Positions 12,688-61,082 of a stretch of 64,000 nt of DNA are shown in pieces. Within the stretch, counting starts at the first letter, position 1; every line of letters begins with the position of its first letter. The position numbers and the translations under genes are program-made. Source of the stretch: Minisyncoccota bacterium (GTDB lineage Bacteria; Patescibacteriota; Minisyncoccia; Phycocordibacterales; Phycocordibacteraceae); NCBI GenBank assembly GCA_017991635.1, contig JAGOQE010000001.1, positions 65,008 to 129,007 on the forward strand, in the 5' to 3' direction. Under the pieces are notes generated by a model. That model did no database searches. It was not told where the DNA came from and saw nothing but the letters and a program-made list of their open reading frames with translations.

Positions 12688-12722
12688 TTGAAATGAAAAC
12701 TCCCCCGAGGGAAGCTCCGTGA

Positions 12723-12751
12723 ACTATATAGAATGTAGTCAAAAAATGCAA
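12723..12751 (-). promoter_or_regulatory. putative sigma70-type promoter of the str operon
   Basis: Minus strand TTGCAT-17 nt-TATAGT about 35 nt upstream of the rpsL ATG. Confidence 0.35.
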
Positions 12752-12767
12752 CTACCGGTGTCTCCTA

Positions 12768-24845: not shown

Positions 24846-24948
24846 GGGATTGTAGCCTTTCTGTAACGAGCAACGGGACGAATTCCCGTGCATCCGGAGC
24901 ATAACAACATTTTATTGTCACAAAGTCAACACTATAGTGAAACCCCGC

Positions 24949-39841: not shown

Positions 39842-39865
39842 TCCTTATATGATAGCGTGCTTGTC

Positions 39866-41077
39866 TTAAATCTTTGAAGAGAGCGAGTAGATAGGTGCAA
39901 TCATTGCCATTGCAAAAATACCAACGAACAATCCGATAAAGAGCATGAGTACTGGCTCAATAATAGTAGAGAGGTCTTTTGTTCTGTCTTCAACATCGGT
40001 TTCGTAATACGTTGCGACTTGCCCGAGCATGTCTGAAACTTTTCCTGTCTCCTCTCCAACTGAAATCATGTCAGTTACAAAAATTGGATAGAGCTTTGGA
40101 TAATCATTAAATGCTGCTGAAAGCGCTTCACCTGCACGCACGCGCTCTTCAGCTTCTTTTAAAACGTTTGCAAACAATGGCGCGCCCACCACCTCGCGTG
40201 TAATTGAAATTGCGGTAAGCATTTCAACACCTGAAGAAAGTAGCGAGGAGAGTGAGCGACAGGCACGCGCGCTCATCGTCTCTCGTACCAGGTCCCCAAT
40301 AGCAGGAAGCATGAGTGAGGTTCTCAAAATTACTCCTGCACCAAATTTTGAGCGAATAAATACAGCGCCACTAATTACAATTACGGCAATGATAGACAGT
40401 GTTGCAATCATGTTATTCACCATAAAATCGGAGATGCCGACAATGACCTTTGTCGCCATAGGCAAATCAACACCAAGTGAGGCAAAGGTGCTTGAGAGCG
40501 TAGGCACCACAAACATCATCATCAAAATAGCAATGACCACGATAGCTCCCAAAATAATGCTTGGGTAAATCATAGCGCCCTTAACCTTCTTTTGAAGCGT
40601 GAAGGAACGGTCCATCTGATGTGCCACTGCTGCCAAGGTTTCTGAAAGCTTACCTGACTCCTCGCCCGCCTTCGTCATCGCAATAAAGAGTGTTGAAAAT
40701 ACTTGCGGGTGAGTTGCAAGCGCTTCGTGAAAAGACCCGCCTTGTTTAATACGCGTCTCGAGATCAACAACGGTCTCTTTAAGATATTTATTCTTAGTCT
40801 GACGTTCAATCACAGACAGCGCTCTCGAGAGCGTCAGACCTGCTGAAAGCATGGCAGCAAGATTCTTCGTAAAGGTGATTCTCTGTTCAATATTTATGCC
40901 ACTACCAATACGAATATTTGCCCACTTGGGCACACCGCCTCCCCCACCTTCTTCAAGGGACATGACCGTCGCACCCTCCTTTTCAACAGCGGAGTACACT
41001 GCAAAACGTGTTGGCGCGTCAATAACTCGCTTCTCTTCAGTTCCGTCTTCTTTTTTAATGACGACGCGATATTTCAT
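39866..41077 (-). CDS. pilC: type IV pilus assembly protein PilC (GspF family)
   Basis: 403 aa; two GspF repeats and three TM segments. Confidence 0.85.
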   Translation of the reverse strand: MKYRVVIKKEDGTEEKRVIDAPTRFAVYSAVEKEGATVMSLEEGGGGGVPKWANIRIGSGINIEQRITFTKNLAAMLSAGLTLSRALSVIERQTKNKYLKETVVDLETRIKQGGSFHEALATHPQVFSTLFIAMTKAGEESGKLSETLAAVAHQMDRSFTLQKKVKGAMIYPSIILGAIVVIAILMMMFVVPTLSSTFASLGVDLPMATKVIVGISDFMVNNMIATLSIIAVIVISGAVFIRSKFGAGVILRTSLMLPAIGDLVRETMSARACRSLSSLLSSGVEMLTAISITREVVGAPLFANVLKEAEERVRAGEALSAAFNDYPKLYPIFVTDMISVGEETGKVSDMLGQVATYYETDVEDRTKDLSTIIEPVLMLFIGLFVGIFAMAMIAPIYSLSSKI

Positions 41078-41102
41078 GCTGTATGTACTCTAGCACGTGT
41101 GA

Positions 41103-42854
41103 CTATTCTGAAACGGCACGCAACACCTCTTCAACTGAAGTGATTCCGCGAGAGGCTTTGTAGAGCCCATCTTCAAGCATAGTGAGCATGCCCTCTTGTC
41201 TTGCGAGCTCTTCAATCTTGTCTCCTGACGCATTATGCAAAATAAGATCGCGAAGTGTTGAGGTAAGCGTGAGCACTTCGTGAATACCAATACGACTCTT
41301 ATATCCATCTTCACACTGTGTGGATGGCTTTGGTTTATAGAACGGCAATTCATCAAGCTTGGTACCTGGCTTCACCATCTTCTCATCCGTTAGTGCCTTA
41401 AGTGCCACGTTGAAATGCTCCTCAAGAGCGACGCCTGTGCGTGCTTTTTTATCGAGTTGATACTGCTCTTTTTCATCACAGAGTCTTCGCACAAGTCGCT
41501 GACCCACAACAACACGGAGCGTTGACGCCAAAAGAAACGGTTCAACTCCCATATCAATCAAACGTGGAATAGCGCCCACGGCTGAGTTCGTGTGAATCGT
41601 TGAAAGCACAATGTGTCCCGTAAGCGCAGCATTAATCGCAAGTGATGCTGTTTCTTCATCTCGAATCTCACCGACCATGATGATGTTTGGATCCTGACGC
41701 AAGAGGGCACGGAGTCCCGCAGCAAACGTTAATCCAATACCAGGATTAACTTGCGTTTGATTCACACGCTTCATCTGGTACTCGATTGGGTCTTCAATCG
41801 TTGAAATGTTTACGTCGGGCGTATTCAACATATCGAGAATCGTGTAGAGCGTTGTCGTCTTTCCTGAACCAGTCGGACCAGAAACAAGAATGATTCCTGT
41901 CGTTTGCTTTACTGCATGATGAATGCGCTCTAAGTTCTCACCATGGAAACCAAGGACATCGAGTGTGAAGCCGTCTCCACTCTCGCGAAGAAGACGCATA
42001 ACAATTTTTTCACCGTAGTACGTTGGGAGAAGTGAGACACGGAACGACACCTTATCGCTATCAGTCTCCATCTTAAATCGTCCATCTTGCGGAAGACGCT
42101 TTTCATCAAGCTTTAGATTTGAAAGCACTTTAATACGCGCAGTGATACCTGAGCCTGCGGCCTTGGGGAGCGTCATAGCGTCATGCAAGATACCGTCGAT
42201 GCGATACCGCACCACTACCTCTGCTTCCATAGGTTCAATATGAATGTCAGAAGCGTCTTGAATGATGGCGTGACGAAGAAGCGTGTCGACGATACGCACA
42301 ATCGGCAAATCTTCTGCCATCTTTTTCAAATCTTCACCACTCGCCTCTTCCAGAAGACCATCCTTAACAAGGGTGAGCCGTCCCGCTTCCGTCGAAATCA
42401 AATCACCAAACTCTTCCTTGAGTGATTTTTGATACTGAAGTAGTACGTGGCGAATAGAATCTTCGTCAGTCAAACGCGGAAGAATTTTAAGTCCCGTCTT
42501 CTTCTTCATTGAATCAATTGCGGGAAGGTCTTCCGTATCAAGCATCGCCACTTCAAGTTCAGTGTCTCCCTTTCTAAAGGCAATGATGTTGTGTGTGCGC
42601 GCAATCGGTTCAGGAATCAGTGAGAGCACTTCAAACGGAATCTTTTTATCTTTGAGATTTACAAACGGAATACCAAGCACGTATGCCTTAATACGACGCA
42701 GTGCGTCTTCAGTCATCTGTCCTTGCGAAATGAGAATGTCACCGATAGATTGCTTTCGCTTTTTTGCTTCTATTTCAGCAAGATCAACGTCCTTGCGTGC
42801 GACAAGGCCGGAGTCAATGATGAACTCTTTAAGATCACGTTCTGTCACTTGCAT
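41103..42854 (-). CDS. pilB: type IV pilus assembly ATPase PilB (GspE family)
   Basis: VSGPTGSGKTTTLYT Walker A; start set at MQVTERDL with AAGGAAG RBS. Confidence 0.9.
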   Translation of the reverse strand: MQVTERDLKEFIIDSGLVARKDVDLAEIEAKKRKQSIGDILISQGQMTEDALRRIKAYVLGIPFVNLKDKKIPFEVLSLIPEPIARTHNIIAFRKGDTELEVAMLDTEDLPAIDSMKKKTGLKILPRLTDEDSIRHVLLQYQKSLKEEFGDLISTEAGRLTLVKDGLLEEASGEDLKKMAEDLPIVRIVDTLLRHAIIQDASDIHIEPMEAEVVVRYRIDGILHDAMTLPKAAGSGITARIKVLSNLKLDEKRLPQDGRFKMETDSDKVSFRVSLLPTYYGEKIVMRLLRESGDGFTLDVLGFHGENLERIHHAVKQTTGIILVSGPTGSGKTTTLYTILDMLNTPDVNISTIEDPIEYQMKRVNQTQVNPGIGLTFAAGLRALLRQDPNIIMVGEIRDEETASLAINAALTGHIVLSTIHTNSAVGAIPRLIDMGVEPFLLASTLRVVVGQRLVRRLCDEKEQYQLDKKARTGVALEEHFNVALKALTDEKMVKPGTKLDELPFYKPKPSTQCEDGYKSRIGIHEVLTLTSTLRDLILHNASGDKIEELARQEGMLTMLEDGLYKASRGITSVEEVLRAVSE

Positions 42855-42942
42855 GCTTCCTTTAGTATATCGTGCGTGCGTTATAAATGTACGTTCATGC
42901 ACGCACACAAACAGGGGAAAAGAATTGACGTATACTTACAAC

Positions 42943-43707
42943 ATGGACATGGAACGACTACACCGAAGACTTCGTAACGGCGCAACCGATATTCTTGATA
43001 ACGTTCCTTCAACACGTCCTCCTGCAAAGATTGAACGTGCGCGTGAATCAGCAAGTGACAATGCGCTTGCTCACAGTTTTTTCTCACCCGAACTTCAATC
43101 TGAAACACGTGCGTCAACTGAATCACTGCCAGAGGGTTATCACCTTGCGCACCTTATTGCAGGAAGCAAAAAGGAAGGAACTCTGCACGCTCACGACTAC
43201 ATCATCAAAAAAGATGAGGCGGGTGTGACGCTCTTATATGTAGATGCGGAACACACCATGGGTAAAGGTAAGCGCGAAGGGGTGCTTCCTCGCATGGGTG
43301 ATATTCGTCCTAAGATTGCAAACCTCCTTGCCCTTACCATACCGAACGAGGACGGACCTCTTGAGGCAGTATGTTTGCGCTACCGAACAGAGCGTCTTGG
43401 ACAAGACAGTGAGTTTTTCATGCCCCACCAGCAACTTGCCCTTCTTGAGGAAATGCTTAAAGAGCAGGCACTCCCAGAATCACTTCGCACCAAGGAAGAA
43501 GAGATTGTCTTTAGGGTGCAGATTGGCCCAAACACCAACCTTGTACAAAGTAGGTACACGAGCAGTAAGGACCTTGAGACATTACTTACTGGCAAAGCAA
43601 ACACTCCTTTCTTGAGAGGCAAAACACAGGCATACAGCACTATTGCGAGCAAATTCGCCAGACATATGCGTGACGGAAAGTTCAAACCCATGCGTTCGCC
43701 GGTGTAG
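42943..43707 (+). CDS. hypothetical protein (254 aa)
   Basis: 3' in-frame part of ORF 42562..43707; the 5' part is antisense to pilB and discarded. Confidence 0.4.
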   Translation: MDMERLHRRLRNGATDILDNVPSTRPPAKIERARESASDNALAHSFFSPELQSETRASTESLPEGYHLAHLIAGSKKEGTLHAHDYIIKKDEAGVTLLYVDAEHTMGKGKREGVLPRMGDIRPKIANLLALTIPNEDGPLEAVCLRYRTERLGQDSEFFMPHQQLALLEEMLKEQALPESLRTKEEEIVFRVQIGPNTNLVQSRYTSSKDLETLLTGKANTPFLRGKTQAYSTIASKFARHMRDGKFKPMRSPV

Positions 43708-43829
43708 TCCACTGTCCCCACACCATATTGACAGAACGCTCTCCCTGTCGTACCTTATATATACCTGAAATGTCCGCACCCGCGGGCCTTTCTTTTTAAA
43801 AAACGTGCGCACAACTAAATACAGAAGGT

Positions 43830-45254
43830 ATGCTGGACCTGAAAACCATCAATTCAGTTTTGGGAGAATTTGAAGACCGGGGTATTACCAAGGAGACTAT
43901 GCTCGATGCTATCGAGCAGGCCATGGCTACTGCCTACAAGAAAGAATACGGAAAGCGCGGACAGGTCGTCCGTGCGATGGTTGATATGAATTCAGGCACC
44001 GTTTCCTTCGAACAGGTAAAGACTGTCGTTGACGAGACGATGGTACGTTTTCCTACAAAAGAAGAGGAAGAGGCAGACAATGCCCTTCCTGAGCAGGCAC
44101 ATCACCACGAGCACCACGAGGAATTGCCTGAGGGCGAATTGCCTCGTTACGATGCTGAAAAGCACATGCTTTTGGAGGACGCCAAGCGCATTAAGCGTGG
44201 TGTTGAGCTTGGAGAAGAAATTATCTTCCCTCTTGAGCCACAGGACGACTTTGGTCGTATTGCAGCACAAACTGCTAAGCAGGTAGTTATCCAGAAGATT
44301 CGTGAGGCCGAAAAGCTTTCACTTCTTGCTGAATTTGACCATAAGAAGGGTGAAGTTGTTTCTGGTGTCGTACAGCGCGTTGAGCGTGGGTCTATTTTTG
44401 TTGACCTTGGACGTGCAACCGGCATCATTCCTTACGAGGAGCAGATTCCTGGTGAGCGTTACCGTATGGGAGAGCGCATTTCAGCCTACCTCTACGCTGT
44501 AGATGAAGGATTCCGTGGCGTCTACCTACGCCTTTCACGAAGCCACCCTCGCTTTGTCGTGAAACTCTTTGAAGCTGAAGTACCTGAACTTACATCAGGC
44601 GCTATCGAAATTAAAGGGATTGCTCGCGAAGCAGGTTCACGCACAAAGATTGCCATTGCTTCAACGGACCCTCATGTAGACCCAGTTGGTGCCCTTGTGG
44701 GCCAGCGCGGTGTTCGTGTATCTACCGTTATGGGTGCTCTTGGAGGTGAGCGCATCGATATTATCGAGTGGTCAGACAACCAAGAAAACTATATTAAAGA
44801 GAGCCTTTCACCAGCAACCGTGCTTGAGGTTGAGCTCAAGGAAGCAGATCACCGTGCAACCGTGACGGTGTCAGCTGACCAACAGTCACTTGCAATTGGC
44901 CGCGGCGGACAAAACGTACGCCTGGCTGCAAAACTCACCGGATGGAATATCGATATTCTTTCTGTGGGTGGCGAGAGTGTTGCTGAAGGTGAATCAAAAG
45001 AAGAGGAAGTGGCTTCAGACGAGCCAAAAGCTTCTGAAGTCCACGTAGCTGAGGCCGAGGAGGCGCTTGAAGCGGCTGAAGAGGCAGAGGAGACCAATCC
45101 AGCTCACGAGATGGGACTTGATGAAGGCGCATCTGACTCTATTGTCGTTACTGACGACGCAGAATCTGGCGCACTCTCTGTTGAAGACGAGACCACACTC
45201 ACTGATGAAGGTGTTTCAGAAGGTGAGGCAAAGGACGCTCGCGATACCGTGTAA
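43830..45254 (+). CDS. nusA: transcription termination/antitermination factor NusA with acidic C-terminal tail
   Basis: NusA N-domain; S1 domain GEVVSGVVQRVERGSIFVDLG; two KH domains. Confidence 0.9.
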   Translation: MLDLKTINSVLGEFEDRGITKETMLDAIEQAMATAYKKEYGKRGQVVRAMVDMNSGTVSFEQVKTVVDETMVRFPTKEEEEADNALPEQAHHHEHHEELPEGELPRYDAEKHMLLEDAKRIKRGVELGEEIIFPLEPQDDFGRIAAQTAKQVVIQKIREAEKLSLLAEFDHKKGEVVSGVVQRVERGSIFVDLGRATGIIPYEEQIPGERYRMGERISAYLYAVDEGFRGVYLRLSRSHPRFVVKLFEAEVPELTSGAIEIKGIAREAGSRTKIAIASTDPHVDPVGALVGQRGVRVSTVMGALGGERIDIIEWSDNQENYIKESLSPATVLEVELKEADHRATVTVSADQQSLAIGRGGQNVRLAAKLTGWNIDILSVGGESVAEGESKEEEVASDEPKASEVHVAEAEEALEAAEEAEETNPAHEMGLDEGASDSIVVTDDAESGALSVEDETTLTDEGVSEGEAKDARDTV

Positions 45255-45275
45255 CCACCGTAACTACGTACAATC

Positions 45276-45797
45276 ATGAACTTACTTCACGATATTGAAT
45301 CAGGAAGTGCGGAAAAGATGAACGTCATCATTGAGATTCCAAAAGGCTCAAAGAACAAGTACGAGATTGATAAGGAGACCGGCATCATTGCTCTAGACCG
45401 TGTACTTCACTCAGCTCAGGACTATCCGTTTGACTACGGATTTGTTCCACAGACACTTTGGGATGATGGTGACGCCCTTGATGTGGTGGTACTTACCACC
45501 TACCCGCTCATGCCAGGCATTCTCGTGCGCGTTCGTCCTGTGGCTATCTTGCCTATGGTTGATGGTGGTGAGTCTGACGCCAAGGTGCTTGCTGTTCCTA
45601 CAGATGACCCTCGTTTCGCTGACATCAAGGATCTTTCTGACGTAAACAAGCACACGCTTAAGGAAATCGCTCACTTTTTCTTGACCTACAAGCAAATTCA
45701 AAACAAAGAAGTGTCACTTGGAGAATGGGGCGGACGCGCTGATGCAGAAGCAGCATTCACTCGCTCTCGCGAACTCTACACAAACAAAGGTGCGTAA
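45276..45797 (+). CDS. ppa: inorganic pyrophosphatase
   Basis: KNKYEID...DYGFVPQTLWDDGDALDVVVL. Confidence 0.9.
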   Translation: MNLLHDIESGSAEKMNVIIEIPKGSKNKYEIDKETGIIALDRVLHSAQDYPFDYGFVPQTLWDDGDALDVVVLTTYPLMPGILVRVRPVAILPMVDGGESDAKVLAVPTDDPRFADIKDLSDVNKHTLKEIAHFFLTYKQIQNKEVSLGEWGGRADAEAAFTRSRELYTNKGA

Positions 45798-45812
45798 ACA
45801 TTTGCACATATA

Positions 45813-45843
45813 AAAAACCGGAGGCGCTGTCCTCCGGTTTTTT
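45813..45843 (+). terminator. rho-independent terminator
   Basis: aaaaccggaggcgctgtcctccggtttttt. Confidence 0.7.
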
Positions 45844-45879
45844 GTATGTACTACAGGCACTTAGGTATACTTTACCTAT

Positions 45880-46071
45880 ATGGAAGATACAAAACCTTTT
45901 AGTGGAGGCCAGCCACTTGATGCAGACGCGGCGCGAAACGCTTCTTGGGGCACCATGATTGTCATTGTTGTTATTCTCACGATGATTGTAACGGCAGCAC
46001 TCTATTCTTGGGGAAAGCGCATTGCGGAAGAGAAAGCGCTACAGGCGGAGTACGAAAGTCAGCGCTACTAG
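45880..46071 (+). CDS. small membrane protein, hypothetical
   Basis: 63 aa with one TM. Confidence 0.25.
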   Translation: MEDTKPFSGGQPLDADAARNASWGTMIVIVVILTMIVTAALYSWGKRIAEEKALQAEYESQRY

Positions 46072-46115
46072 TTCAAACTTTCGTTTGAACTAGTTTCTGA
46101 TAGGATAGCTAGACT

Positions 46116-46727
46116 ATGGAGTACAAAAAACTATCCGCGAAGTCATCGATGCTCGTCCCTATGGTGGTTGAAAAGACCCAGTTTGGAGAGCGTGCCTACG
46201 ATATTTACTCACGCCTTTTGAAGGAACGCATTGTGTTTCTTGGAGGCCCTATTGATGACGATGTTGCTAACCTCATCATCTCTCAACTTCTCTTTCTTGA
46301 GGCTGAAGACCCCAAAAAGGATATTTACCTATACGTAAACAGTCCTGGCGGACACGTTCACTCAGGACTTGCCATTGTGGACGCAATGAATCACGTGAAG
46401 CCTGACGTGGCGACCGTTGCTGTTGGTATGGCCGCATCTATGGGCTCTATCATTCTTGCCTCAGGAGCTAAAGGAAAGCGCTTTGCTCTTCCAAACGCAG
46501 ATATCATGATTCACCAGCCTCATGGTGGTGCTGAAGGACAGGCAACAGACATTGAAATCAGCGCACGTCGTATTCTCTCCCTTCGTGAGCGCTTGAATAA
46601 GATTCTCGCAAAGCAGTCAGGGCAAAAGCTTGAGAAAGTTGCCCTTGATGTTGATCGTGACTTCTATCTTTCTGCAGAAGAAGCAAAGAAGTACGGCATC
46701 ATCGACCAGGTATACAAGGTTAAATAG
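46116..46727 (+). CDS. clpP: ATP-dependent Clp protease proteolytic subunit
   Basis: [18 protein letters not shown]...[15 protein letters not shown]...MIHQP. Confidence 0.9.
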
Positions 46728-46740
46728 TGAAACCTCTCAA

Positions 46741-46775
46741 AAGCCCCGAAAGCCTACGGCTTTCGGGGCTTTTGT
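46741..46775 (+). terminator. rho-independent terminator
   Basis: 13-bp stem agccccgaaagcc-tac-ggctttcggggct followed by tttgtg. Confidence 0.75.
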
Positions 46776-46867
46776 GTACCTAACAGGCCAAATATGGTCT
46801 AATGACCCCGTTCCCTTACTTATTACCTTTGGGCGCATTTTGCGCGCTTAGGCTTTCAAAAACGTGT

Positions 46868-48397
46868 ATGTCTATAAAACTAGTGTTGGTATTACTCGCA
46901 TTTTCCGGCATGGCCGGTATTGCTCTTGGATACGTCCTTCGTCTCTTAATTGCTCTCGGTCAGCGAGGCTCTATTGAGCTTGAAGTAAAGAAACGTCTCC
47001 TTGATGCAAAAGAAAAAGCTGATCGCATCTTGGAAGAGGCGCGAGCAGAAGCTATCGAAATTCAAGACGAGAAGCTTGACCCGCTTCGCGAACGTGAAGA
47101 ACGTCTTGAAAAGATGGAGGACCGTCTCCTCAAGCGTGAAGAATTTCTTGATGACCGTGAGCGCTCACTCACCAATGAGAGTGATGAAGTTAAAAATCGT
47201 GAAAACGAAGTTGCGAACATTCGCAAAGAAGCGGAAGCGGTGCTTCGTGAACGCAGAGAAAAGCTTTCCGATATTGCGCACTTAAGTGAAGACGAGGCAC
47301 GAGGAATGCTTCTCAAGGAAATTGAGAAGGCATATGAAACGTCGTTCCTCTCTCGCATGCAAAAGCTTGAAACTCATGGAAAGAAACAACTTGAGGCTAA
47401 AGCTAAAAGTGTTTTGCTTTCGGTAATTCACCGCATGGCAGGTGCGGTAAACGCTGAAGTAATGACGCTCACCGTACAGATTCCAAGCGAAGAGATAAAA
47501 GGAAAGGTTATTGGAAAAGACGGACGAAACATTAAAGCGTTTGAACGTGCTACGGGTGTTGATGTTTTGATTGATGACATTCCTGACCGCATTACTCTTT
47601 CTTCCTTTGATCCGCTTCGTCGTCACATCGCAAAGATTGCTCTTGATAAGTTGATTGCTGACGGACGTATTCAACCTGCAAAGATTGAAGAGACCGTTGA
47701 AAAAACTAAGGAAGAAGTGCAAGCACTTATCAAACAGAAGGGCGAGGAAGCAGCGTATGAAGTTGGTATTGTGGACCTTGATCCAAAGCTGATTGCCTTA
47801 CTTGGTCGCCTGCACTTCCGCACAAGCTACGGCCAGAGCGTGCTACAACACTCAGTTGAAATGGCACACCTTGCGGGGATGCTTGCTGAAGAGCTTGGTG
47901 CAAATCCTGAAGTTGCGAAGAAGGGTGCCCTCCTTCACGACATTGGTAAGGCAGTTGACCATGAAGTGTCAGGAACTCACGTTGAGATTGGCCGTCGCAT
48001 CCTTGAAAAGTTTGGTGTTGAAACACCAGTCATTCAAGCAATGCAGTCACACCACGAAGAGTATCCGTATGAAACACCTGAATCAGTCATCGTTCAGACC
48101 GTGGACGCAATCTCTGCAGGACGACCTGGAGCACGTCGTGACACGATTGAACGTTATCTTGAGCGCTTGTCGGATTTGGAGCGCCTTGCAAGCTCATTTC
48201 CGGGCGTTGAGAAGGTATACGCCATCTCTGCAGGTCGTGAAATTCGCATCTTTGTGAATCCAGGGAAGGTAAATGATCTTGCCGTACACAAACTCGCGCG
48301 TGATATCGCCGAGCGAGTGCAGGAAGAACTTAAATATCCAGGAGAAATTAAGGTGAATGTGATTCGTGAGAATCGTGTAGTTGAGTTCGCTCGCTAA
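46868..48397 (+). CDS. rny: ribonuclease Y
   Basis: N-terminal TM, coiled coil, KH (IGKDGRNIKAFERATGVD), HD (HSVEMAHLAG...LLHDIGK); start set at MSIKLVL. Confidence 0.85.
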   Translation: MSIKLVLVLLAFSGMAGIALGYVLRLLIALGQRGSIELEVKKRLLDAKEKADRILEEARAEAIEIQDEKLDPLREREERLEKMEDRLLKREEFLDDRERSLTNESDEVKNRENEVANIRKEAEAVLRERREKLSDIAHLSEDEARGMLLKEIEKAYETSFLSRMQKLETHGKKQLEAKAKSVLLSVIHRMAGAVNAEVMTLTVQIPSEEIKGKVIGKDGRNIKAFERATGVDVLIDDIPDRITLSSFDPLRRHIAKIALDKLIADGRIQPAKIEETVEKTKEEVQALIKQKGEEAAYEVGIVDLDPKLIALLGRLHFRTSYGQSVLQHSVEMAHLAGMLAEELGANPEVAKKGALLHDIGKAVDHEVSGTHVEIGRRILEKFGVETPVIQAMQSHHEEYPYETPESVIVQTVDAISAGRPGARRDTIERYLERLSDLERLASSFPGVEKVYAISAGREIRIFVNPGKVNDLAVHKLARDIAERVQEELKYPGEIKVNVIRENRVVEFAR

Positions 48398-48415
48398 TCA
48401 AGCACCACCAGAACA

Positions 48416-48455
48416 CAAAAACCGCGCAAGGCAATAGCCTTGCGCGGTTTTTGGC
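48416..48455 (+). terminator. rho-independent terminator
   Basis: aaaaaccgcgcaaggcaatagccttgcgcggttttt. Confidence 0.7.
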
Positions 48456-48557
48456 TTATCCCCGACATATGTTAAAGGGTATTGCTAAATATGGCTCATT
48501 TTCTATACTTTCTGACGTACCCTCCTGTAGGGTGTTCATTAGCCCTAATCGTCCCCT

Positions 48558-48830
48558 ATGAATAAATCAGACATCGTTTCAAAGGTGCAGGACGTTCTCG
48601 GAAGCACAAAGGCTGACGCAGAGCGCGCCGTAGAGTGTGTAATTGATTGTGTTACTTCAGGTCTTAAGTCAGGCGATGAAGTATCAATTGCAGGACTCGG
48701 CATCTTTAGCGCAAAGGCTCGTCCTGCGCGCACCGGTCGCAACCCTCGCACCGGAGAGACCATCAAGATTGCAGCTACTCGAACTCCTAAGTTCCGCGCA
48801 GCTAAGGCCTTGAAGGACGCTGTTAAGTAG
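48558..48830 (+). CDS. hup: DNA-binding protein HU
   Basis: 90 aa; GLGIFSAKARPARTGRNPRTGETIKI. Confidence 0.85.
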   Translation: MNKSDIVSKVQDVLGSTKADAERAVECVIDCVTSGLKSGDEVSIAGLGIFSAKARPARTGRNPRTGETIKIAATRTPKFRAAKALKDAVK

Positions 48831-48846
48831 TTTTCTGTTCGTGCGC

Positions 48847-48877
48847 AAAATGCCCTGCATCTGCAGGGCATTTTGCT
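48847..48877 (+). terminator. rho-independent terminator
   Basis: aaaatgccctgcatctgcagggcatttt. Confidence 0.7.
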
Positions 48878-49026
48878 TTGTGTAGAACCAGCCAGCGGGT
48901 TGACATTTAACATAATAATGCGTATAGTCCCACTGGAACAAAAGGTCCCAATATTGCGCCTCGGTGAGGCTCCTAGTGCAAGCGTACAACCCAAAAATCC
49001 TGAACTTAGGAAGGTTACGCCTACAA

Positions 49027-49547
49027 TGGTTAGCAAGCAGAGCAAGAAAAAGAAGGTTGAAGCTCCGGCTCCCGACCGCAACCCTGAGGCCGACATCTTT
49101 GTCGTCCTCAGCTACGAGATTCTTCGTGGTGACGGCAAGGGTGGACAATATCCCTTTCTTCACGCTGTTTGGAGCGGTTTCAACACCGCTTTCAAGCGTG
49201 TCTTCGAGGGAACGAACCCTGTCGACTACATGCAGATGCTCGCCGCCGAGAAACTGATTGAGCTCCGCCCCTTCAAGGGCGGCGTCACGATCAAGCCTCT
49301 CCCGCCCATGCTGAAGAAGCTCTCGCCCGACGAGCAGGCCATCTCGGCTCGCCTTCGCGTCTATCTCAACGATTTCCACGATGAGTGGGCCGAAGAGAAG
49401 AAGCGCCGTGCTGCCGCGAAGGAAGCCGCCAAGCTGGCGCTCCCGCCCAAGCCTGAAGCTCCCAAGCCCACCGCTGCCGAAACGGCTGCTGGCAAGCTCT
49501 GGGCCAAGGGTGATACGGCGAAGGCCCTCGACAAGCTCGGCTACTAG
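49027..49547 (+). CDS. hypothetical protein on GC-rich, GC3-biased DNA
   Basis: AGGAAGG RBS; codon usage clearly different from neighbouring hup and rny. Confidence 0.4.
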
Positions 49548-49609
49548 AGCGCGATGTCGCCCGAGGAGAGTGAACTCTCTCCTCGGGCGCTCGAAATCGG
49601 GAGAACACC

Positions 49610-49765
49610 ATGAAACGAAGGGGCACCGAACTCTGTCTCGAAGCGAAACGGCTCATCGCTGAAATTCGCAAACGGACTGAAGAAGGTCTTCTCATCATCA
49701 AGGAGGCGAAAGAACACCTCAAACAACATGCGCGGCCAAGGCCAATTGCATCGAACGACCCATAG
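49610..49765 (+). CDS. small basic ORF (51 aa); its 3' end lies inside direct repeat 1
   Basis: GGGAGA RBS; MKRRGTELCLEAKRLIAEIRKRTEEGLLIIKEAKEHLKQHARPRPIASNDP; translated by hand, too short for the ORF track. Confidence 0.25.
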   Translation: MKRRGTELCLEAKRLIAEIRKRTEEGLLIIKEAKEHLKQHARPRPIASNDP

Positions 49766-49791
49766 CTCACGCGGGGTCGTTTTGCTTTATA
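49749..49791 (+). repeat. 43-bp direct repeat, copy 1
   Basis: catcgaacgacccatagctcacgcggggtcgttttgctttata; identical to 52463-52505; contains a small hairpin plus T-run. Confidence 0.8.
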
Positions 49792-49814
49792 TATGATAAA
49801 AGACGTAACTTTCG

Positions 49815-50009
49815 TTACGTCTCCCTCCTAATTGAAATCCAAATCGCGGCAGCGCCAACGAAGAGAGCGATAGTGCCCCCCTCCCACATCCCTTCAGGGT
49901 ATCTCTTCCCTGCCTCCATGAGGAAGTACGCTCGGAACATGCCGGACGCCCCCATAAAGGTCAGAAACGAGCCGAGTAGAAAGAGGCCAATCCGATTGAG
50001 TTTATCCAT
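49815..50009 (-). CDS. small membrane protein (64 aa)
   Basis: Two hydrophobic helices. Confidence 0.3.
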   Translation of the reverse strand: MDKLNRIGLFLLGSFLTFMGASGMFRAYFLMEAGKRYPEGMWEGGTIALFVGAAAIWISIRRET

Positions 50010-50030
50010 GAAAGAGCGTCCCTTGTGAGC

Positions 50031-50213
50031 TCACGACGTGATTGTCCCGAGTCTCAATAAGAGGGGTAAGTCGTGTCGTTCGTGATCGTACTTACCCTGT
50101 TTGAGTTTCGCCTTCACGCATTTGCGAGTGTGCAGTTTCTTTTTGTCTGCGACTACTCGCTGGTGAAGCGACGGCGACCGAAGCGCTTTCGCAATCGGAT
50201 TTCTATTCTTCAT
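50031..50213 (-). CDS. small basic protein with ArfA-like (alternative ribosome-rescue factor) motif
   Basis: AKALRSPSLHQRVVADKKK resembles E. coli ArfA [20 protein letters not shown]; 4-nt overlap with the upstream gene. Confidence 0.3.
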   Translation of the reverse strand: MKNRNPIAKALRSPSLHQRVVADKKKLHTRKCVKAKLKQGKYDHERHDLPLLLRLGTITS

Positions 50214-50810
50214 GACTTTTCCTTTCTTGAGGAGACGGGAATCCTGCCGGCTTTAACGTCTTCAAGGAAATCCCTAAAGGCAAGACGTGCGGTATTTACT
50301 GCAGCGCGGACACCCTTTGGAACCTTGCAGAAATACACGTACCTTGAGGAAGTGGTGTATTTCTTCAGACGCTCAGCCGACTCTCGAAGATCTGCCTCAA
50401 GCTTTTGAAGCTTGCAGGCATCCGAAATTGGTCTCGTAGAGTCTGGCGCGTAAAGCGCTGGAATCACGAGCATATTTGCTAGCTCTGCGAGTCTCTCGAG
50501 GTCTCGGAACACAGCGAAGGTTGTTTGAAACGGTGTATCTTCATACAGCATGAGTAGCTTCCCTATCAGCCCACGAACCATTTCACGGGCTGAATAGAGT
50601 GGGTAAGCTTGTGACTTACCCTCCGCACCACCGATCGAGAAACTCGTCGGCCGCCTCCGGGGAGACATTGCGCGCGAGGTAAAGCGCGTGTGCGAGAGCC
50701 TCTTTATCGGAGAGGCGTCCGGCCGGCCGGGGCGGGGTGAGGGGTTTGAAACCCTCGGTCCACGAATGGACACCTACGACTCGGCCCGTAGGATTTTTTA
50801 TAATATGCAT
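50210..50810 (-). pseudogene. frameshifted gene (about 200 aa if restored), hypothetical
   Basis: ORF 50616..50810 (protein-like) ends at GGAGGGTAA; ORF 50210..50773 continues in the +1 frame from the same region and its own N-terminus is Pro/Arg-rich junk. Confidence 0.35.
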
Positions 50811-51114
50811 GGTGTTTCTCCTGTTGCACCTTGAAATCGTTTCTTTCTTTGACCTCTGTCAGGCCACATCACAAAGACGACTCTACGCAACAGAAGAGAG
50901 TCCTGAACGTTACGTGTGGGCACTAATCCACACGTAACGTTCTTTTGCAGATTTGAGAGGTGGATCATGACTCCACATCCTACTCACTGCCTAGCACGGA
51001 TCTTGCTAGTAAGCTCTGTCAGTCCGCAAATTGCTTTCCGGACTGAATAGAGAGGAGGACATTGCCAGTGTCCTCCTTGGTGATTTCTGTTGCCAGGTTC
51101 ACCAACCCCGAATC

Positions 51115-51480
51115 CTATTCAAACGCGCCGATGAAGCCGAGATGGCGGAAGATTTGCGTCTTCCTCACACCTCCCTGCCCGTCCGGTTCCTCGACACTCA
51201 CCCGTTGGGCGAATGCGTGGTCCGGTTGGACTTCCGACCTCATGAGCACTCTCTCGAGTGGACTCATGAAGAACGGAGCTCCCCCGATCATGGCGCGAGA
51301 TGCGCCATGCCGCTTGGCGACTTCCGCAAGAGCACGAGCCCTCGCGAAAACCTCCTCACGGGTGGGCAGGGTGTCGAACGTCAGCAGGCGCTGAACGTCC
51401 GACTTGTCCGCAGGCTCAAACACGCCGGCGGCGATTTGATCGGCCGTGGCAGCATGCTGCGTCAGGTTGAGAATGTTCAT
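51115..51480 (-). CDS. hypothetical protein (121 aa), GC-rich
   Basis: ORF; the long opposite-strand ORF 51031..51519 is judged a GC artefact. Confidence 0.4.
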   Translation of the reverse strand: MNILNLTQHAATADQIAAGVFEPADKSDVQRLLTFDTLPTREEVFARARALAEVAKRHGASRAMIGGAPFFMSPLERVLMRSEVQPDHAFAQRVSVEEPDGQGGVRKTQIFRHLGFIGAFE

Positions 51481-51645
51481 GTCTTATGCCTCTTTGGCGT
51501 TGACTTCCTATGTATATAATAGCACAATTCAGGACTGTGTCAATCACTGTAATTGTAATCTGACACTGTTTGAGTTACTTTTTATGTCATGTGTGCTATA
51601 TTTTAAAAGTATTTCTGCTTGCCTCTCCATTTTGTAAACAACTTC

Positions 51646-52455
51646 ATGACACCAAATTTTGACAGCTTACACGCACACGCACTTACAGGAGCTGGCCTAA
51701 CGCAAGAACAGGCACACGTATACGAGCTTCTTTTGAAACGTGGTCCTCGCCAGGCAGGACAGCTTCCCCGTACGCTCGGACTCTCAAGACCTTATGTATA
51801 TAAATTGCTGTCTGAGCTTGAAGGATTGGGGCTTGTCACCAAGGAAGAACCTCCTGGCAAGCCGGCTCAGTTTGTTCCAGCTCACCCTTTCGCTATTCAA
51901 GAGCTTATTCGCAAGCGGCAATCTGAGCTTTCCGTCACTGACCAGACCATTAAAGCGGTAATGAGTTCTCTCATCTCTGACTACTCGACCTCCTCGCGAA
52001 CTCCCGGCGTACGCATTATTCCAGGAATTGAGGGTATACAAGAGCTCTATCAAGACATCCTCCAGGAAGGGAAACCTGTTTCTTTACTTCGCTCAGTACG
52101 AGACGACGACACACCAGAACTTCTTGAACTTGTTCTTGAACAAATAAAAAAGCAAGTCAAACGCGGCATTACAGCAAGAATTTTGAGTCCACTTCCAACT
52201 GACATATCGCTTCCTGCACTTTACGAGAGAGACAAGGAACGTTTAACTGCGCGAAAGACCATAGATAGAGAGCGTTTCACACTTCCTGCTCAAATTATTA
52301 TGTATGGTGATAAAACAGGAATTACCGCATACCAGGAAACACACATGACCACAATCATTGAGAACACTGCAATCACTGCAACGTTTCGTGCTGTTTTTGA
52401 AATACTATGGACAAGTGTTGGTGTTGATCCCTATGACACAAATACGAAAGCATGA
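51646..52455 (+). CDS. TrmB-family winged-helix transcriptional regulator
   Basis: LTQEQAHVYELLLKRGPRQAGQLPRTLGLSRPYVYKLLSELEGLGLVT. Confidence 0.55.
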   Translation: MTPNFDSLHAHALTGAGLTQEQAHVYELLLKRGPRQAGQLPRTLGLSRPYVYKLLSELEGLGLVTKEEPPGKPAQFVPAHPFAIQELIRKRQSELSVTDQTIKAVMSSLISDYSTSSRTPGVRIIPGIEGIQELYQDILQEGKPVSLLRSVRDDDTPELLELVLEQIKKQVKRGITARILSPLPTDISLPALYERDKERLTARKTIDRERFTLPAQIIMYGDKTGITAYQETHMTTIIENTAITATFRAVFEILWTSVGVDPYDTNTKA

Positions 52456-52462
52456 TTAATTA

Positions 52463-52505
52463 CATCGAACGACCCATAGCTCACGCGGGGTCGTTTTGCT
52501 TTATA
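52463..52505 (+). repeat. 43-bp direct repeat, copy 2
   Basis: Identical to 49749-49791. Confidence 0.8.
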
Positions 52506-52514
52506 CTGTCGAAG

Positions 52515-53312
52515 ATGGAAGGACTTCCCCGCAAAGAAAAAATGGTTTCAAGAAGTGAAACGTGGGTAGAACGCACTGAGAAACCTATCAGTAAAGACTT
52601 CTTTAGGTTGCAGCATGATTTTGCACTCACTCTTGCAAGCCAAGATGGCATTTCAAAAGCACGGTCGCTCAAGAGATTTGCTCCGTTTGTGTTTAAGAAC
52701 CTGTTTACACTCGACACTGATGCAGGCACATGGAAGAAGCTCCCTGGAGTCAGTCTTGATAGCGCTCTTGATACTGCGTACGAGAACTATCTGAAGAAAG
52801 TAGATACGGAGCCAGTTCCCTACAACGAAGGAACGCGTTTCGGGTGCTCAAGCTACACCTACGATGAAGACAAGAAAGCTGCATGGGTTCATTTTGTAAA
52901 TGCTGAATACGATGAAACAGGCCCTCTAGACCGTTCAAAAATTTCATTACGAAGACAGGAAGTCGCTGATGTAGTGCGTAGCTTGAAAGAACGGTACCCC
53001 GACGTGGAGACCATTAATGGAAATTCTTGGCTCTACAGCCTTGAAGCCTATAGAAGAATCTATCCTGAAGAGTACACAAGAACGCTAACGCCCGACCTGC
53101 GTAAGGTGGTGTGGCAACAAGGCACGCGTATGTGGGGACAATTTTTAACTAGTGAAGGAACGGTGAAAACGGAGCTTGCTGATGTGTTGCTCTCACGCGC
53201 AAAGACACTTCCTAAAGATGCGTTTTTGTTTAGTCTACTCACTGACCCACTCACCCCTCCTTTGAGAGTATCTGCACCAGCTGAAGTGTTTTGTAGGGAG
53301 TACGGAGTTTAG
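52515..53312 (+). CDS. hypothetical protein
   Basis: Start set at MEGLPRKEK, downstream of the repeat; the ORF track start at 52452 reads through the repeat. Confidence 0.45.
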   Translation: MEGLPRKEKMVSRSETWVERTEKPISKDFFRLQHDFALTLASQDGISKARSLKRFAPFVFKNLFTLDTDAGTWKKLPGVSLDSALDTAYENYLKKVDTEPVPYNEGTRFGCSSYTYDEDKKAAWVHFVNAEYDETGPLDRSKISLRRQEVADVVRSLKERYPDVETINGNSWLYSLEAYRRIYPEEYTRTLTPDLRKVVWQQGTRMWGQFLTSEGTVKTELADVLLSRAKTLPKDAFLFSLLTDPLTPPLRVSAPAEVFCREYGV

Positions 53313-53476
53313 TGCGGGATAGGAGAAGTTCCGCTTCTCTAACTCGTGACGACACAAGTGGAATTGGTGCCGGTTCCGGCTTTGACCAATTTCCAAGGAG
53401 TGAAACGACTATGAAAATGGAAACACCCTTGTGGTGCGATTCTCCACGGACAGTGCACAGGCACTGTCCTTATCCC
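53312..53476 (-). ncRNA. tRNA-acceptor-mimicking structured element E1 (about 165 nt)
   Basis: Minus strand begins TGCGGGATAA then 9-bp hairpin GGACAGTGC-CTGT-GCACTGTCC; ends hairpin GAGAAG-CGGAA-CTTCTC then CTATCCCGCA, matching both acceptor-stem strands of the adjacent tRNA-Gly(UCC); not foldable as a tRNA. Confidence 0.35.
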
Positions 53477-53515
53477 GCAAACAACAAAAGCCCCTTGTGG
53501 GGCCTTTGTTTCGTG

Positions 53516-53586
53516 TGCGGGATAGGAGAATCGAACTCCTGCTCACAGTTTGGAAAACTGTTGTTCTACCATTAAACTAATCCCGC
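53516..53586 (-). tRNA. tRNA-Gly (anticodon UCC)
   Basis: Revcomp GCGGGATTAGTTTAATGGTAGAACAACAGTTTTCCAAACTGTGAGCAGGAGTTCGATTCTCCTATCCCGCA; 7-bp acceptor, D-arm, anticodon loop TTTCCAA, T-loop TTCGATT; no encoded CCA. Confidence 0.8.
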
Positions 53587-55596: not shown

Positions 55597-55817
55597 GAGA
55601 GGATAGGGAGAAGTTCCCGATTTCTAACTCGCTACGCTCGTAACAAATCTAGGTCACGCATCGGTCACCCGATTTGTTCGTCGTCACTCACAAACCGCTC
55701 GACGCCGGGAAACGGTTTTGCTTGCTAGCAAAACAGCCGTTTCCCTTTCGCACCCCTCCGGGTATTCCGATGCATCATTCTCCACGGACAGTGCGCAGGC
55801 ACTGTCCTCTATCCGCA
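55597..55817 (-). ncRNA. tRNA-acceptor-mimicking structured element E2 (about 220 nt), homologous to E1
   Basis: Minus strand begins TGCGGATAGA then GGACAGTGC-CTGC-GCACTGTCC-GTGGAGAAT (as E1); ends ...GAGTTAGAAATCGGGAACTTCTCCCTATCC; termini match tRNA-Gly(GCC) acceptor strands. Confidence 0.35.
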
Positions 55818-55833
55818 CACGATTTTTAACGCA

Positions 55834-55857
55834 AAAGAGCGCTTTCGCGCTCTTTTG
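55834..55857. terminator. hairpin between tRNA-Gly(GCC) and E2
   Basis: aaaagagcgctttcgcgctctttt. Confidence 0.55.
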
Positions 55858-55867
55858 CTGAATCGTG

Positions 55868-55938
55868 TGCGGATAGGGAGAATCGAACTCCCGACTGGTC
55901 CTTGGCAAGGACCCGTTTTACCACTAAACCATATCCGC
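55868..55938 (-). tRNA. tRNA-Gly (anticodon GCC)
   Basis: Revcomp GCGGATATGGTTTAGTGGTAAAACGGGTCCTTGCCAAGGACCAGTCGGGAGTTCGATTCTCCCTATCCGCA; canonical cloverleaf. Confidence 0.8.
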
Positions 55939-59555: not shown

Positions 59556-60110
59556 ATGTACCGAAGAGGCTTTACCTTGGTAGAACTTCTGATTGTAATC
59601 GCAATAATTGGCATACTCTCTTCCGTAGTGATGAGTTCGCTTAACTCTGCGCGCGCCAAAGCGCGCGACGCAAGCAGAGTTGCCTCTATTCAAGAAATGC
59701 AAAAGGCACTTGAAAACTACTACCTTGATAACGGCAGGTATCCTGGCGCAACTCTCGGAAGCTATGCAAAAACAATAGACACCCCAAACGGAGGGGAGTG
59801 TGGGTACCAGAATAACTGGTGTAACTTAGAGACAGCCCTCGCACCATACATTCGCTCCATTCCAAGAGATAACCTCGGAGGACCTGCAATGGAGGGTCGC
59901 TTTTTATACAAATCGAACAGCCCGTATTCAATGTATGCTCTTAGCGTGACTTTGGAGCAACAAAGTAATGCCAGTATTAATGACGGGGGATATTTTCCGA
60001 CTTTATACGAAGTTGGTTCACTCCCTCGATACTGCACTCAGACCTATACAGGCACAGGAGCTAACTGGAACACATGGAACGGTGCTTTGAACTGTGTCGG
60101 AGGAAACTAA
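59556..60110 (+). CDS. type IV pilin (prepilin-type N-terminal cleavage/methylation domain)
   Basis: MYRRGFTLVELLIVIAIIGILSSVV class-III signal; Cys-containing C-terminus. Confidence 0.75.
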   Translation: MYRRGFTLVELLIVIAIIGILSSVVMSSLNSARAKARDASRVASIQEMQKALENYYLDNGRYPGATLGSYAKTIDTPNGGECGYQNNWCNLETALAPYIRSIPRDNLGGPAMEGRFLYKSNSPYSMYALSVTLEQQSNASINDGGYFPTLYEVGSLPRYCTQTYTGTGANWNTWNGALNCVGGN

Positions 60111-61003
60111 GTTCGCTTTGAGTGAAATTTTTTGTGCACCTCACGTAAATGTGAGTCAGTAACATGCGTATAAATCTGAGTTGTATTAATAGAAGCGTGC
60201 CCTAAAAGAGCTTGCACAGAGCGAATATCTGCGCCATTTGAAAGTAGGTCAGTCGCAAATGAGTGCCGAAGTACGTGCGGTGTGACTTTTTTGGTTATGC
60301 CAGCTTTTGCTGAGTAGATTTTAATCATGCGCTCCACTGAGCGGGGAGTGATGCGCTCGTTCTTCTTTTTCCCTTGCGCATGATTCACGAACAGTGCCTC
60401 GTGCATATCCTTGCGCGCCTTGAGATACGCTCGCACAGCATCCTTTGCGGCGTCTGAAATAAACACCACACGTACTTTGTCACCCTTACCGCGCACAGAA
60501 AGCTCGTCTCGGGAGAGGTCTATATCACTATCAAGTCCACACAATTCTGAAACACGCAGACCTGTGGAGAATAATAATTCCAGAATGGCTCTGTCTCGCA
60601 ACGCCTTTTCGCTTGCACCATCTGCAGCCTTCATGAGCCTGTCGAGTTCTGCATCATTAATAAGATCAAGAGAGCGCTCAGGCACTTTTGCAAGTTCAAT
60701 CTTTTCAGGAGAGAGTCCCGGAATGTCGCGCTTCCTTAGGAACTTAAGAAAGGCACGCATTGCAATCAAGTAATAGTTTTGTGTGCGACGTTTGAGCGTA
60801 TCTTTTCCTGTTCCTGGCTGACGGTTAAGCCATAGACGAAATTCGCGAATTTTCTCTTCGGTAATTTGATTTGTGTCAGCTATCGCGGCCCATTGAAAAA
60901 AACGTGTGAGGTACCGGTCGTAGTTCTCAATAGTTTTAACCGCACGGCCTCGTTCAATTTCAGTATGCTCGAGAAATTGACGCTTAGCATCTTCAACCTT
61001 CAT
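60107..61003 (-). CDS. tyrosine site-specific recombinase (XerC/XerD family)
   Basis: HVLRHSFATDLLSNGADIRSVQALLGHASINTTQIYTHV; Arg-His-Arg-Tyr catalytic region; ORF start is GTG at 61030, ATG at 61003 chosen. Confidence 0.8.
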   Translation of the reverse strand: MKVEDAKRQFLEHTEIERGRAVKTIENYDRYLTRFFQWAAIADTNQITEEKIREFRLWLNRQPGTGKDTLKRRTQNYYLIAMRAFLKFLRKRDIPGLSPEKIELAKVPERSLDLINDAELDRLMKAADGASEKALRDRAILELLFSTGLRVSELCGLDSDIDLSRDELSVRGKGDKVRVVFISDAAKDAVRAYLKARKDMHEALFVNHAQGKKKNERITPRSVERMIKIYSAKAGITKKVTPHVLRHSFATDLLSNGADIRSVQALLGHASINTTQIYTHVTDSHLREVHKKFHSKRT

Positions 61004-61082
61004 ACAAATAGTGTAGCACTGGCGTCGCACAATATATGAAGACGATATTTACTTGAGTAGGGAACTGTTACAATGCGGATAT

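Follow-up and report, generated by a model that had tools for sequence, protein, structure and literature searches.

Gene content of a repeat-bounded module downstream of hup

We analysed a stretch of 64,000 nucleotides (64 kb) from the genome of a Minisyncoccota bacterium (contig JAGOQE010000001.1, positions 65,008 to 129,007; termed the window, whose own coordinates are used throughout) and focused on a small group of genes that lies between hup and a tRNA cluster and is enclosed by two copies of a direct repeat. An initial annotation, made from the sequence, had reported an identical 43-mer at 49749-49791 and 52463-52505. This repeat is indeed present and extends to 48 nucleotides (nt), at 49744-49791 and 52458-52505 on the forward strand, with 47 of the 48 positions identical, a single G/A mismatch (at 52462 in the right copy) and a spacing of 2714. 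The window holds these two copies of the 43-mer and no third, and no match was seen in any of 100 shuffled sequences. Moreover, a 44-nt pattern built on the 43-mer, with five positions left free, had no exact match in GTDB genomes or JGI contigs. As judged from the 64-kb window and these collections, the 43-mer is therefore no common repeat.

The left, attL-like copy forms a terminator-like hairpin and overlaps the 3' end of a small open reading frame (ORF), as had been noticed before: ORF B, which encodes 51 amino acids (aa), has its final seven codons and its stop within this copy. The right, attR-like copy begins 3 nt past the stop codon of gene G and ends 9 nt ahead of the start codon of gene H. 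With its 9-bp hairpin and the UUUUGCUUU behind it, the folded 48-mer looks like an intrinsic terminator in form. However, the other terminators in the window show a mutual similarity of only ~78%, and the near-identity of the two copies over 48 nt thus goes beyond ordinary terminator convergence. A possible third att copy at the hup terminator was rejected, since its similarity to the 48-mer (15/19) was judged to be generic terminator sequence.

Between the repeats lie six small genes which appear to form two divergent transcription units, with G transcribed rightward and F-E1-E2-D-C leftward, and with a promoter-like site and a terminator for each unit. The initial annotation had counted four to five genes; the 64-aa membrane ORF C had gone unlisted. 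G (51646-52455, forward strand) encodes a 269-aa winged-helix regulator of the TrmB family, whose residues 16-81 score 45 bits against the winged-helix profile PF01978 (gathering score 25.6), in agreement with the TrmB-like regulator previously placed inside the repeats. It is divergent from F (51115-51480), the first gene of the leftward operon, which encodes a 121-aa protein of the MJ1673 family (PF27247) with a Rossmann-like fold and is preceded by a strong promoter-like sequence of the sigma-70 type (TTGACA-16-TATTAT with TG, 11/12; 51516-51543). Like F and its putative promoter, the remaining genes are on the reverse strand. E1 (50616-50810) encodes 64 aa and E2 (50210-50551) is an orphan of ~113 aa. 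D (50031-50213), whose start codon overlaps the stop codon of E2 (ATGA), encodes a 60-aa basic peptide of an ArfA-related, DUF7230-like family with the motif RNPIAKALRS. The last gene of the operon, C (49815-50009), encodes a 64-aa predicted membrane protein, and a C-like membrane ORF of 58 aa occupies the same position in another species (locus L045). A hairpin at 49803-49823, together with a U-rich stretch, is the likely terminator of C and of the leftward operon and abuts the left repeat.

E1 and E2 had previously been described as a single frameshifted gene of about 200 aa. They are two genes, as other strains and species encode E1 homologues (63-69 aa) as separate proteins, and E2 is matched from residue 41 on by a 109-aa protein in locus L014. 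The longest ORF of E2 reaches to 50773; its translation probably begins at M40 (50551), downstream of the E1 stop codon. A word-index protein search found nothing for D and, for E2, only the query's own cluster.

Scans of the six module ORFs against Pfam, NCBIfam, PHROGs and PADLOC revealed no recombinase, transposase or replication domain, in line with the earlier statement that the segment contains no integrase. The only matches in these libraries were the helix-turn-helix (HTH) domain of TrmB, a weak one to Csx20 and a weak one to DUF7230. A tyrosine recombinase does lie at 60.1 kb (60107-61030), as had been reported, but it is of the Xer type (Phage_integrase plus SAM_1), and its counterparts in 19 related species (67-78% identity) share its syntenic place in the order cca-xth-xer. 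It is a housekeeping Xer rather than the integrase of an island.

To the left of the repeats, A (173 aa, with a GC content at third codon positions (GC3) of 0.74) and B form an accessory unit (49026-49765, forward strand) that holds a native copy of the 48-mer and has a promoter-like site at 48900-48928. An exact look-up of protein A found nothing. To the right lies H (52515-53312, forward strand), which encodes 265 aa and serves as the marker of the ancestral right flank. All of the neighbouring genes (nusA, ppa, clpP, rny, hup and those for type IV pili), as well as 80 related loci, are from Paceibacteria/Patescibacteria.

The GC3 z-scores of these genes, taken against 50 background genes, are +4.6 for A, +4.2 for F, +3.3 for C, +3.0 for E1, +2.1 for D, +0.9 for B and +0.7 for E2, compared to host-like values of -0.7 for H and -1.7 for G. 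The GC-rich islet described in the initial annotation is real insofar as the stretch from 48880 to 51545, whose left end agrees with the proposed start at about 48.9 kb, is statistically distinct (GC 0.542, the 96.7th percentile, and a tetranucleotide distance ~3.9 standard deviations over background). However, this block straddles the left repeat, comprising A-B outside and C-F inside of it, and omits the TrmB gene, so that the inter-repeat segment as a whole only reaches a GC of 0.500 (83rd percentile). Moreover, in three other species (L014, L016 and L045) a GC3-rich F operon also lies beside an AT-richer TrmB gene. The GC contrast is therefore a standing property of the genes and not the signature of an insertion. 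The most GC-rich gene of the window is found elsewhere: it encodes a 679-aa SPFH/Band-7 protein (22863-24902, reverse strand; GC 0.58-0.60, GC3 0.74, z-score +4.7) and is another outlier in composition.

Strain distribution and origin of the module

Relatives with an empty site exist. In L005, which is 95% identical to the window, the sequence corresponding to 38556-49791 is joined straight to that of 52458-53311 via a single 48-mer, whose left flank is that of the left copy and whose right flank is that of the right copy. In L004, which is 86% identical, one repeat copy with 6 mismatches follows A-B; the H-side flank matches for ~8 nt past this copy and then the sequence diverges. The strain-variable module (49792-52457) is thus absent from both L005 and L004, whereas it is found at 97.5-100% identity in four other metagenome samples. 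The ends of the module unitigs in L001 (100% identity), L002 (98.5%) and L106 (97.5%) coincide exactly with the repeat boundaries. The discrete, att-like bounded segment proposed in the initial annotation, and the empty site with a single repeat copy to be looked for in relatives, were thereby both recovered, the former as a unit of insertion or deletion.

The module is part of a larger strain-variable interval (48880-53436) which, in the strain alignment, reaches from the hup terminator to the tRNA-Gly(tcc) terminator. Other strains diverge from the window at 48879-48882, right after the hup terminator, and rejoin it at 53437, just downstream of tRNA-Gly(tcc). A-B is retained in L004 and L005; in L006, L008 and L010-12 the entire block of 48880-53436, including A-B, is missing. 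Among species the distance from hup to cca varies from 1.6 to 7.5 kb. Together with the strain divergence points, this range places the locus in a hypervariable interval. Its position next to a tRNA cluster, which had also been pointed out, holds, as the variable interval ends by tRNA-Gly and four tRNAs are found at 53515, 54951, 55867 and 56150. Finally, three other species (L024, L026 and L035) have a homologue of H as the gene that immediately follows hup. Thus, hup-H is likely the ancestral arrangement, to which A-B and C-G would be later additions.

On balance, we consider it probable that the 2,714-bp unit is an accessory module devoid of a recombinase, which was gained in one sub-lineage of this uncultured Paceibacteria species by recombination at the 43-48-bp site. 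The site would be the 3' end and the terminator of ORF B. A circular intermediate carrying the same 48 bp would recombine with the chromosomal copy in a Campbell-type event, whose direction and mechanism we infer, leaving one copy on each side (attL and attR) and restoring the reading frame and the terminator of B. The event might be driven by a site-specific recombinase acting in trans, for which the host Xer is only a formal possibility, or by homologous recombination of the RecA type. Recombination between the two copies could also delete the module again.

Several observations weigh against this scenario. No recombinase has been identified, and the mechanism is read from the anatomy of the junctions alone. 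The polarity of the change depends on a single outgroup, L004, whose right flank differs. In sample SRR22388190, the module (L106) is 97.5% identical to the window and the flanks of the same strain (L007) are 97.0-97.8% identical. Since module and flanks have diverged to the same extent, the module has been inherited vertically since that split and shows no recent movement. In favour of the scenario, an operon combining TrmB with F and/or D does recur as a unit at different loci, by sodA in L014, by clpP in L016 and downstream of hup in L045, and in L248 TrmB is found with D and without F. However, no flanking repeats were detected around the module in L014, L016, L045 or L026, and there is thus no evidence of repeated mobility. 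Finally, the integrated junctions are documented by the window assembly and by one nucleotide of L109, and Logan unitigs, built with k=31, give the same graph for an integrated copy as for a circle plus an empty site.

The empty site is also exactly what a loss by recombination between the repeats would leave. The arrangement of the window might then be ancestral, with L005 and L004 having lost C-G between pre-existing terminator copies that arose by local duplication or gene conversion. In favour of such a deletion, the GC-rich genes A-B and C-F make up a single uninterrupted stretch of like composition, in which the operons converge and the promoters lie on the outer sides, and an F/D operon is found in the same hup-to-tRNA-Gly interval in L045; the missing sign of recent movement fits as well. 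However, a deletion leaves the origin of a 48-bp duplicate with 98-100% identity unexplained, at a locus whose terminators are ~78% alike, and it requires two losses, in L005 and L004, instead of one gain. Moreover, the 48-mer accompanies A-B in lineages free of the module, it is not found after TrmB in other species, and H directly follows hup in three species. We regard the deletion as unlikely, albeit as the main competitor of a gain.

The ambiguity of the k=31 graph, together with the fact that every independent contig carrying the module or its flanks breaks inside the repeat, would also be expected if the unit were a free circle, or located elsewhere in the genome, and had been threaded into the B-H site because it shares the 43-mer. 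This assembly artefact or episome is, however, very unlikely. The window contig crosses both junctions, and the one base by which L109 extends beyond the right repeat is the H-side base. In addition, the module has no replication gene, and the same breakpoints are found in four samples (97.5-100% identity), with a divergence that tracks that of the chromosome.

Some other classes of mobile units fit the locus poorly. The lack of a recombinase of its own, a host Xer 8 kb away, a repeat that is a hairpin and small genes that are flanked by structured elements and shuffled between species might suggest a transposon, an integron cassette or an Xer-dependent module of the IMEX or pdif type. A transposon is contradicted by the absence of a transposase and of terminal inverted repeats (the best end-to-end inverted match scores 7), and a duplication of 48 bp far exceeds known target-site duplications. 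An integron cassette would be expected to have the single long imperfect hairpin of an attC site, with R''/R' cores, whereas the 48-mer is a plain terminator hairpin, and the RNA element R1 described below is made up of two hairpins and does not occur at the ends of the module. No IntI was seen, the only tyrosine recombinase found being the Xer at 60.1 kb, although the whole window was not scanned for IntI. As for Xer, the 48-mer has no recognisable 11-6-11 dif layout, and the cumulative GC skew does not reveal a terminus at the module locus. We consider all of these options highly improbable.

The nearest counterparts of the module are integrase-less islets flanked by att sites, namely the cis-mobilizable elements (CIMEs) of streptococci and the cargo-only tycheposon satellites of Prochlorococcus. 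The module shares with them a small cargo, flanking direct repeats formed by duplication of a gene's 3' end, the lack of its own recombinase, a precise empty site in relatives and the location in a hypervariable island by tRNA genes. It differs from them in that its repeat consists of the last part of an accessory ORF (51 aa) and the terminator, instead of a tRNA or housekeeping gene, in that neither a cognate integrase was seen in the 64 kb nor a second context or a tandem partner element found, and in that its host belongs to the Candidate Phyla Radiation (CPR). The module is an integrase-less, att-flanked islet of an ordinary kind with an unusual cargo. Mobile DNA of CPR/Patescibacteria is poorly described, and the locus offers a clean case of gain or loss at the population level, at a site the size of a terminator and without a resident recombinase. 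As the four junction types at the locus can be predicted, they are directly testable in reads.

The variable interval shows other features besides the module. At 53312-53327, right past the stop codon of H, the window repeats without a mismatch 16 nt that form the 3' end of tRNA-Gly(tcc) (53515-53530), 203 nt away. The homology of L005 to the window stops at 53311, adjoining this copy, which is probably the relic att site of a tRNA-targeting element. Furthermore, the region 53322-53539 resembles the flank of tRNA-Gly(gcc) at 55607-55891. In L005, H is followed by a gene (12107-13183) for a 358-aa protein with an AbiEi-like HTH, a HATPase and a DUF4325 (STAS-like) domain. It is missing in the window, showing that the interval has further strain-specific content. 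In the 97% strain, a gene for a 296-aa protein with a signal peptide and no Pfam match lies between rny and hup (L007, 8924-9896, corresponding to 48397-48452 of the window). It replaces the rny terminator without a flanking repeat and is a second strain-specific insertion at a terminator.

Relatives of ORF D and protein F

ArfA (PF03889) is an alternative ribosome rescue factor that depends on RF2 and has been reported only from beta- and gamma-proteobacteria (PMC8012679). The initial annotation had called the 60-aa ORF D ArfA-like and had suggested to check this by a profile search. In that search PF03889 matched neither D nor any of eight members of its subfamily, even at E<=10, whereas E. 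coli ArfA scored 89.5 bits in the same scan. Likewise, ArfA was recovered from the PDB neither by phmmer with D nor by a profile of the D family. Direct comparisons failed as well: a pairwise BLASTP alignment of D and ArfA has 9/21 identical residues, and the D subfamily aligns to a nine-sequence ArfA alignment with a probability of only 50% in hhalign.

The resemblance nevertheless has strong transitive support, through intermediate sequences, as a remote homology. When metagenomes were scanned with the motif at the N-terminus of D, 48 loci were obtained, whose ORFs form a graded series. In L202, L209, L225 and L244 the N-terminus of D, RNP[IV]AKAL[RK]S, is joined to the ArfA hallmark K-G-[KR]-G-S-Y. 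These four peptides were scanned against PF03889 (gathering score 25.5), leaving out L212, a near-identical variant of L209. L202 scored 27.1, L209/L244 scored 26.6 and 30.4, and L225, which has KGRGSY, was just under the gathering score with 24.6. D is 68% identical to the L202 peptide (25/37), which in turn matches the ArfA profile with 95% probability, and a family of 21 sequences that includes the D subfamily aligns to ArfA with 95.4% probability (hhalign, E 1.7e-8). Thus, D is homologous to the N-terminal segment of ArfA, and its residues 3-28 are in register with residues 12-37 of ArfA (N-x-[IL]...S-P-x-[LF]-R-x-x-V...KK). In E. coli, this part of ArfA is reported to contact RF2 in the cryo-EM structures of 2016-17.

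Both proteins are small and basic. However, D lacks the invariant KGKGS(Y) turn, which in ArfA is followed by the basic tail that occupies the mRNA channel, and instead has KKKLHTRK, with a 2-residue deletion opposite GRGSY; it has gained a conserved KLKQGKYD tail, and its gene belongs to an operon of an accessory module in Patescibacteria. D is thus, as judged by its sequence relationships, a divergent relative within the ArfA superfamily and no canonical ArfA. It is also related to DUF7230 (PF23876), with which it shares the N-terminal motif and which matches 7/8 members of the D family (best E 1.3e-5), and to phrog_20887 (E 3.9e-5), both of which comprise small phage proteins of unknown function. 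Weak relatives are encoded by T4-like Acinetobacter phages. However, D scores only 15.3 bits against DUF7230 (gathering score 27), and its CPR subfamily has a C-terminal half of its own. We found no paper in the literature that mentions DUF7230 or ArfA in Patescibacteria.

The loci of the metagenome scan are of note in their own right. ORFs of 34-48 aa that combine RNP[IV]AKAL[RK]S with KGKGSY are found in L202, L209, L212, L225 and L244/L245, in contexts that look non-proteobacterial or like mobile elements, and the neighbours of the L202 gene encode small acidic proteins of anti-restriction-like appearance. Peptides like ArfA may be much more widespread than reported. In another subfamily (L238 and L241-L243), a 10-bp GC hairpin followed by a U-run, an intrinsic terminator, is found inside the annotated ORF, after about codon 42, and the protein sequence downstream of it is not conserved. 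This predicted architecture is that expected for a gene expressed from a non-stop mRNA.

Protein F is identical to a protein of a metagenome-assembled genome of "Candidatus Pacebacteria" and has 264 detectable homologues. Its predicted model, which is confident (pLDDT 95.5), shows a Rossmann-like alpha/beta fold, and fold searches retrieved generic Rossmann matches only and no specific relative in the PDB. F was detected in 180 stretches of viral contigs, and also in one prophage context, and has a viral structural twin (TM 0.94). None of the viral contigs carrying F encodes A-E, G or H. A general link between F and a RecT/YqaJ recombination module, as seen in L019-L022, was dropped, since it was present in only 2/80 viral loci.

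Part of F weakly resembles Csx20, the cA4 ring nuclease encoded at type III CRISPR loci and, in phages, also in anti-defence operons (bioRxiv 10.1101/2024.09.24.614671; 10.64898/2026.07.27.740549). The match to NF040559 covers residues 79-116 only (15.4 bits, E 0.019) and misses the curated cut-off of 70 bits; the one to the Csx20 profile of PADLOC (PDLC01384) reaches 16.9 bits (E 0.0015). F is like Csx20 in its size of ~120 aa and in its Rossmann-like alpha/beta fold, which has a beta-hairpin at the C-terminus. The last 37 residues of F match the Csx20 profiles, F is frequent in phages and prophages, and its gene lies beside that of a transcription regulator. We regard the connection to Csx20 as a possible lead and not as a demonstrated membership.

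The R1 RNA element and the role of the cargo

At its 3' end, D coincides with an RNA hairpin, a situation that recalls the stem-loop of arfA which yields a non-stop mRNA. The hairpin belongs to an RNA element of ~85 nt, termed R1, that consists of hairpin 1 (HP1, GGGYAAGU...AYUURCCC) followed by CUCCU-AU-HP2-AU-AGGAG, in which HP2 is the second hairpin. HP1 begins exactly at the G-K-Y codons in 8/8 D homologues of CPR bacteria. Its fourth pair alternates between U-A and C-G through paired synonymous changes, and its 3' arm is conserved even where it is untranslated. In two of the D homologues the stop codon lies inside the hairpin, namely within the loop of HP1 in L249 and within its 3' arm in L014, and it can also be located far downstream.

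A covariance model comprising HP1, the second hairpin and the closing helix detected three copies of R1 in the 64-kb window, all within the module and on its coding strand (the reverse strand). The first (50017-50105) overlaps the 3' end of D, with HP1 at the G-K-Y codons, and in its closing helix CUCUU pairs with the Shine-Dalgarno sequence of C. The second (50559-50621; 34 bits, E 1e-6), which was outside the training set, lies between E1 and E2; the 5' arm of HP1 includes the stop codon of E1, and the Shine-Dalgarno sequence of E2 is formed by the 3' strand. The third (51010-51084) is weaker (25 bits, E 2.5e-4), lies downstream of F and is not followed by an ORF. In other Paceibacteria loci there are several copies of R1 per accessory operon, also beside homologues of A and E1; outside the window R1 was found in L045, L014, L248, L032, L060, L052, L026, L054 and L027. 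In 13/19 instances the AGGAG strand of the closing helix (CUCCU-AGGAG) is followed, after ~4-12 nt, by the start of an ORF of 58 aa or more. Thus, R1 is best read as an intercistronic structure that would sequester the Shine-Dalgarno sequence of the next gene, and its position before downstream cistrons suggests their translational coupling or control. Rfam gave no match in the region of 48.8-53.6 kb besides tRNA, and R1 has no Rfam counterpart.

The cargo is of greater interest than the islet, as it combines a peptide family related to ArfA, a phage-type MJ1673/Csx20-like protein and a new RNA element. Our working reading, which is no more than inferred, is that of an operon derived from a mobile element and subject to regulation, with a role in stress, recovery or anti-defence. 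A bolder version would have D and its relatives form an unrecognised branch of ArfA-type rescue factors on mobile elements and in CPR bacteria. D would be co-expressed with a Csx20-like protein that degrades cyclic oligoadenylate, under a TrmB-type repressor and with cistrons gated by R1, as a portable kit to recover from collateral RNase activity or to counter it. If so, the module would end the signalling and release ribosomes that have stalled on cleaved mRNAs, and ArfA-type peptides, trafficked by phages and other mobile elements, would reach far outside the beta- and gamma-proteobacterial range. The presence of D beside a Csx20-like protein does suggest a link between ribosome rescue and nucleotide-signalling immunity. 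This version is, however, quite unlikely. Some points also weigh against our main reading. D itself fails to score as a member of the ArfA family. F matches Csx20 weakly and over part of its length only (15-17 bits), and its fold matches are those of a generic Rossmann protein. In addition, the hairpin at the 3' end of D is part of a repeated intercistronic element that also follows E1 and F and is neither a specific arfA-like feature nor an arfA-specific RNase III or terminator site. An arfA-like reading of this hairpin was downgraded for the same reason.

Independent of these considerations, R1 is a candidate for a new cis-regulatory RNA, with support from covariation and ~20 instances in the loci examined. 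Two further elements were observed on the F side of the operon. The motif UGGCAACAGAA, which is common to the window and L016, lies directly past the stop codon of F. Finally, the 300-nt spacer between F and E1 contains a perfect 15-bp hairpin (GAACGUUACGUGUGG...CCACACGUAACGUUC; 50905-50942) with a folding energy of -26 kcal/mol and a z-score of -5.7.

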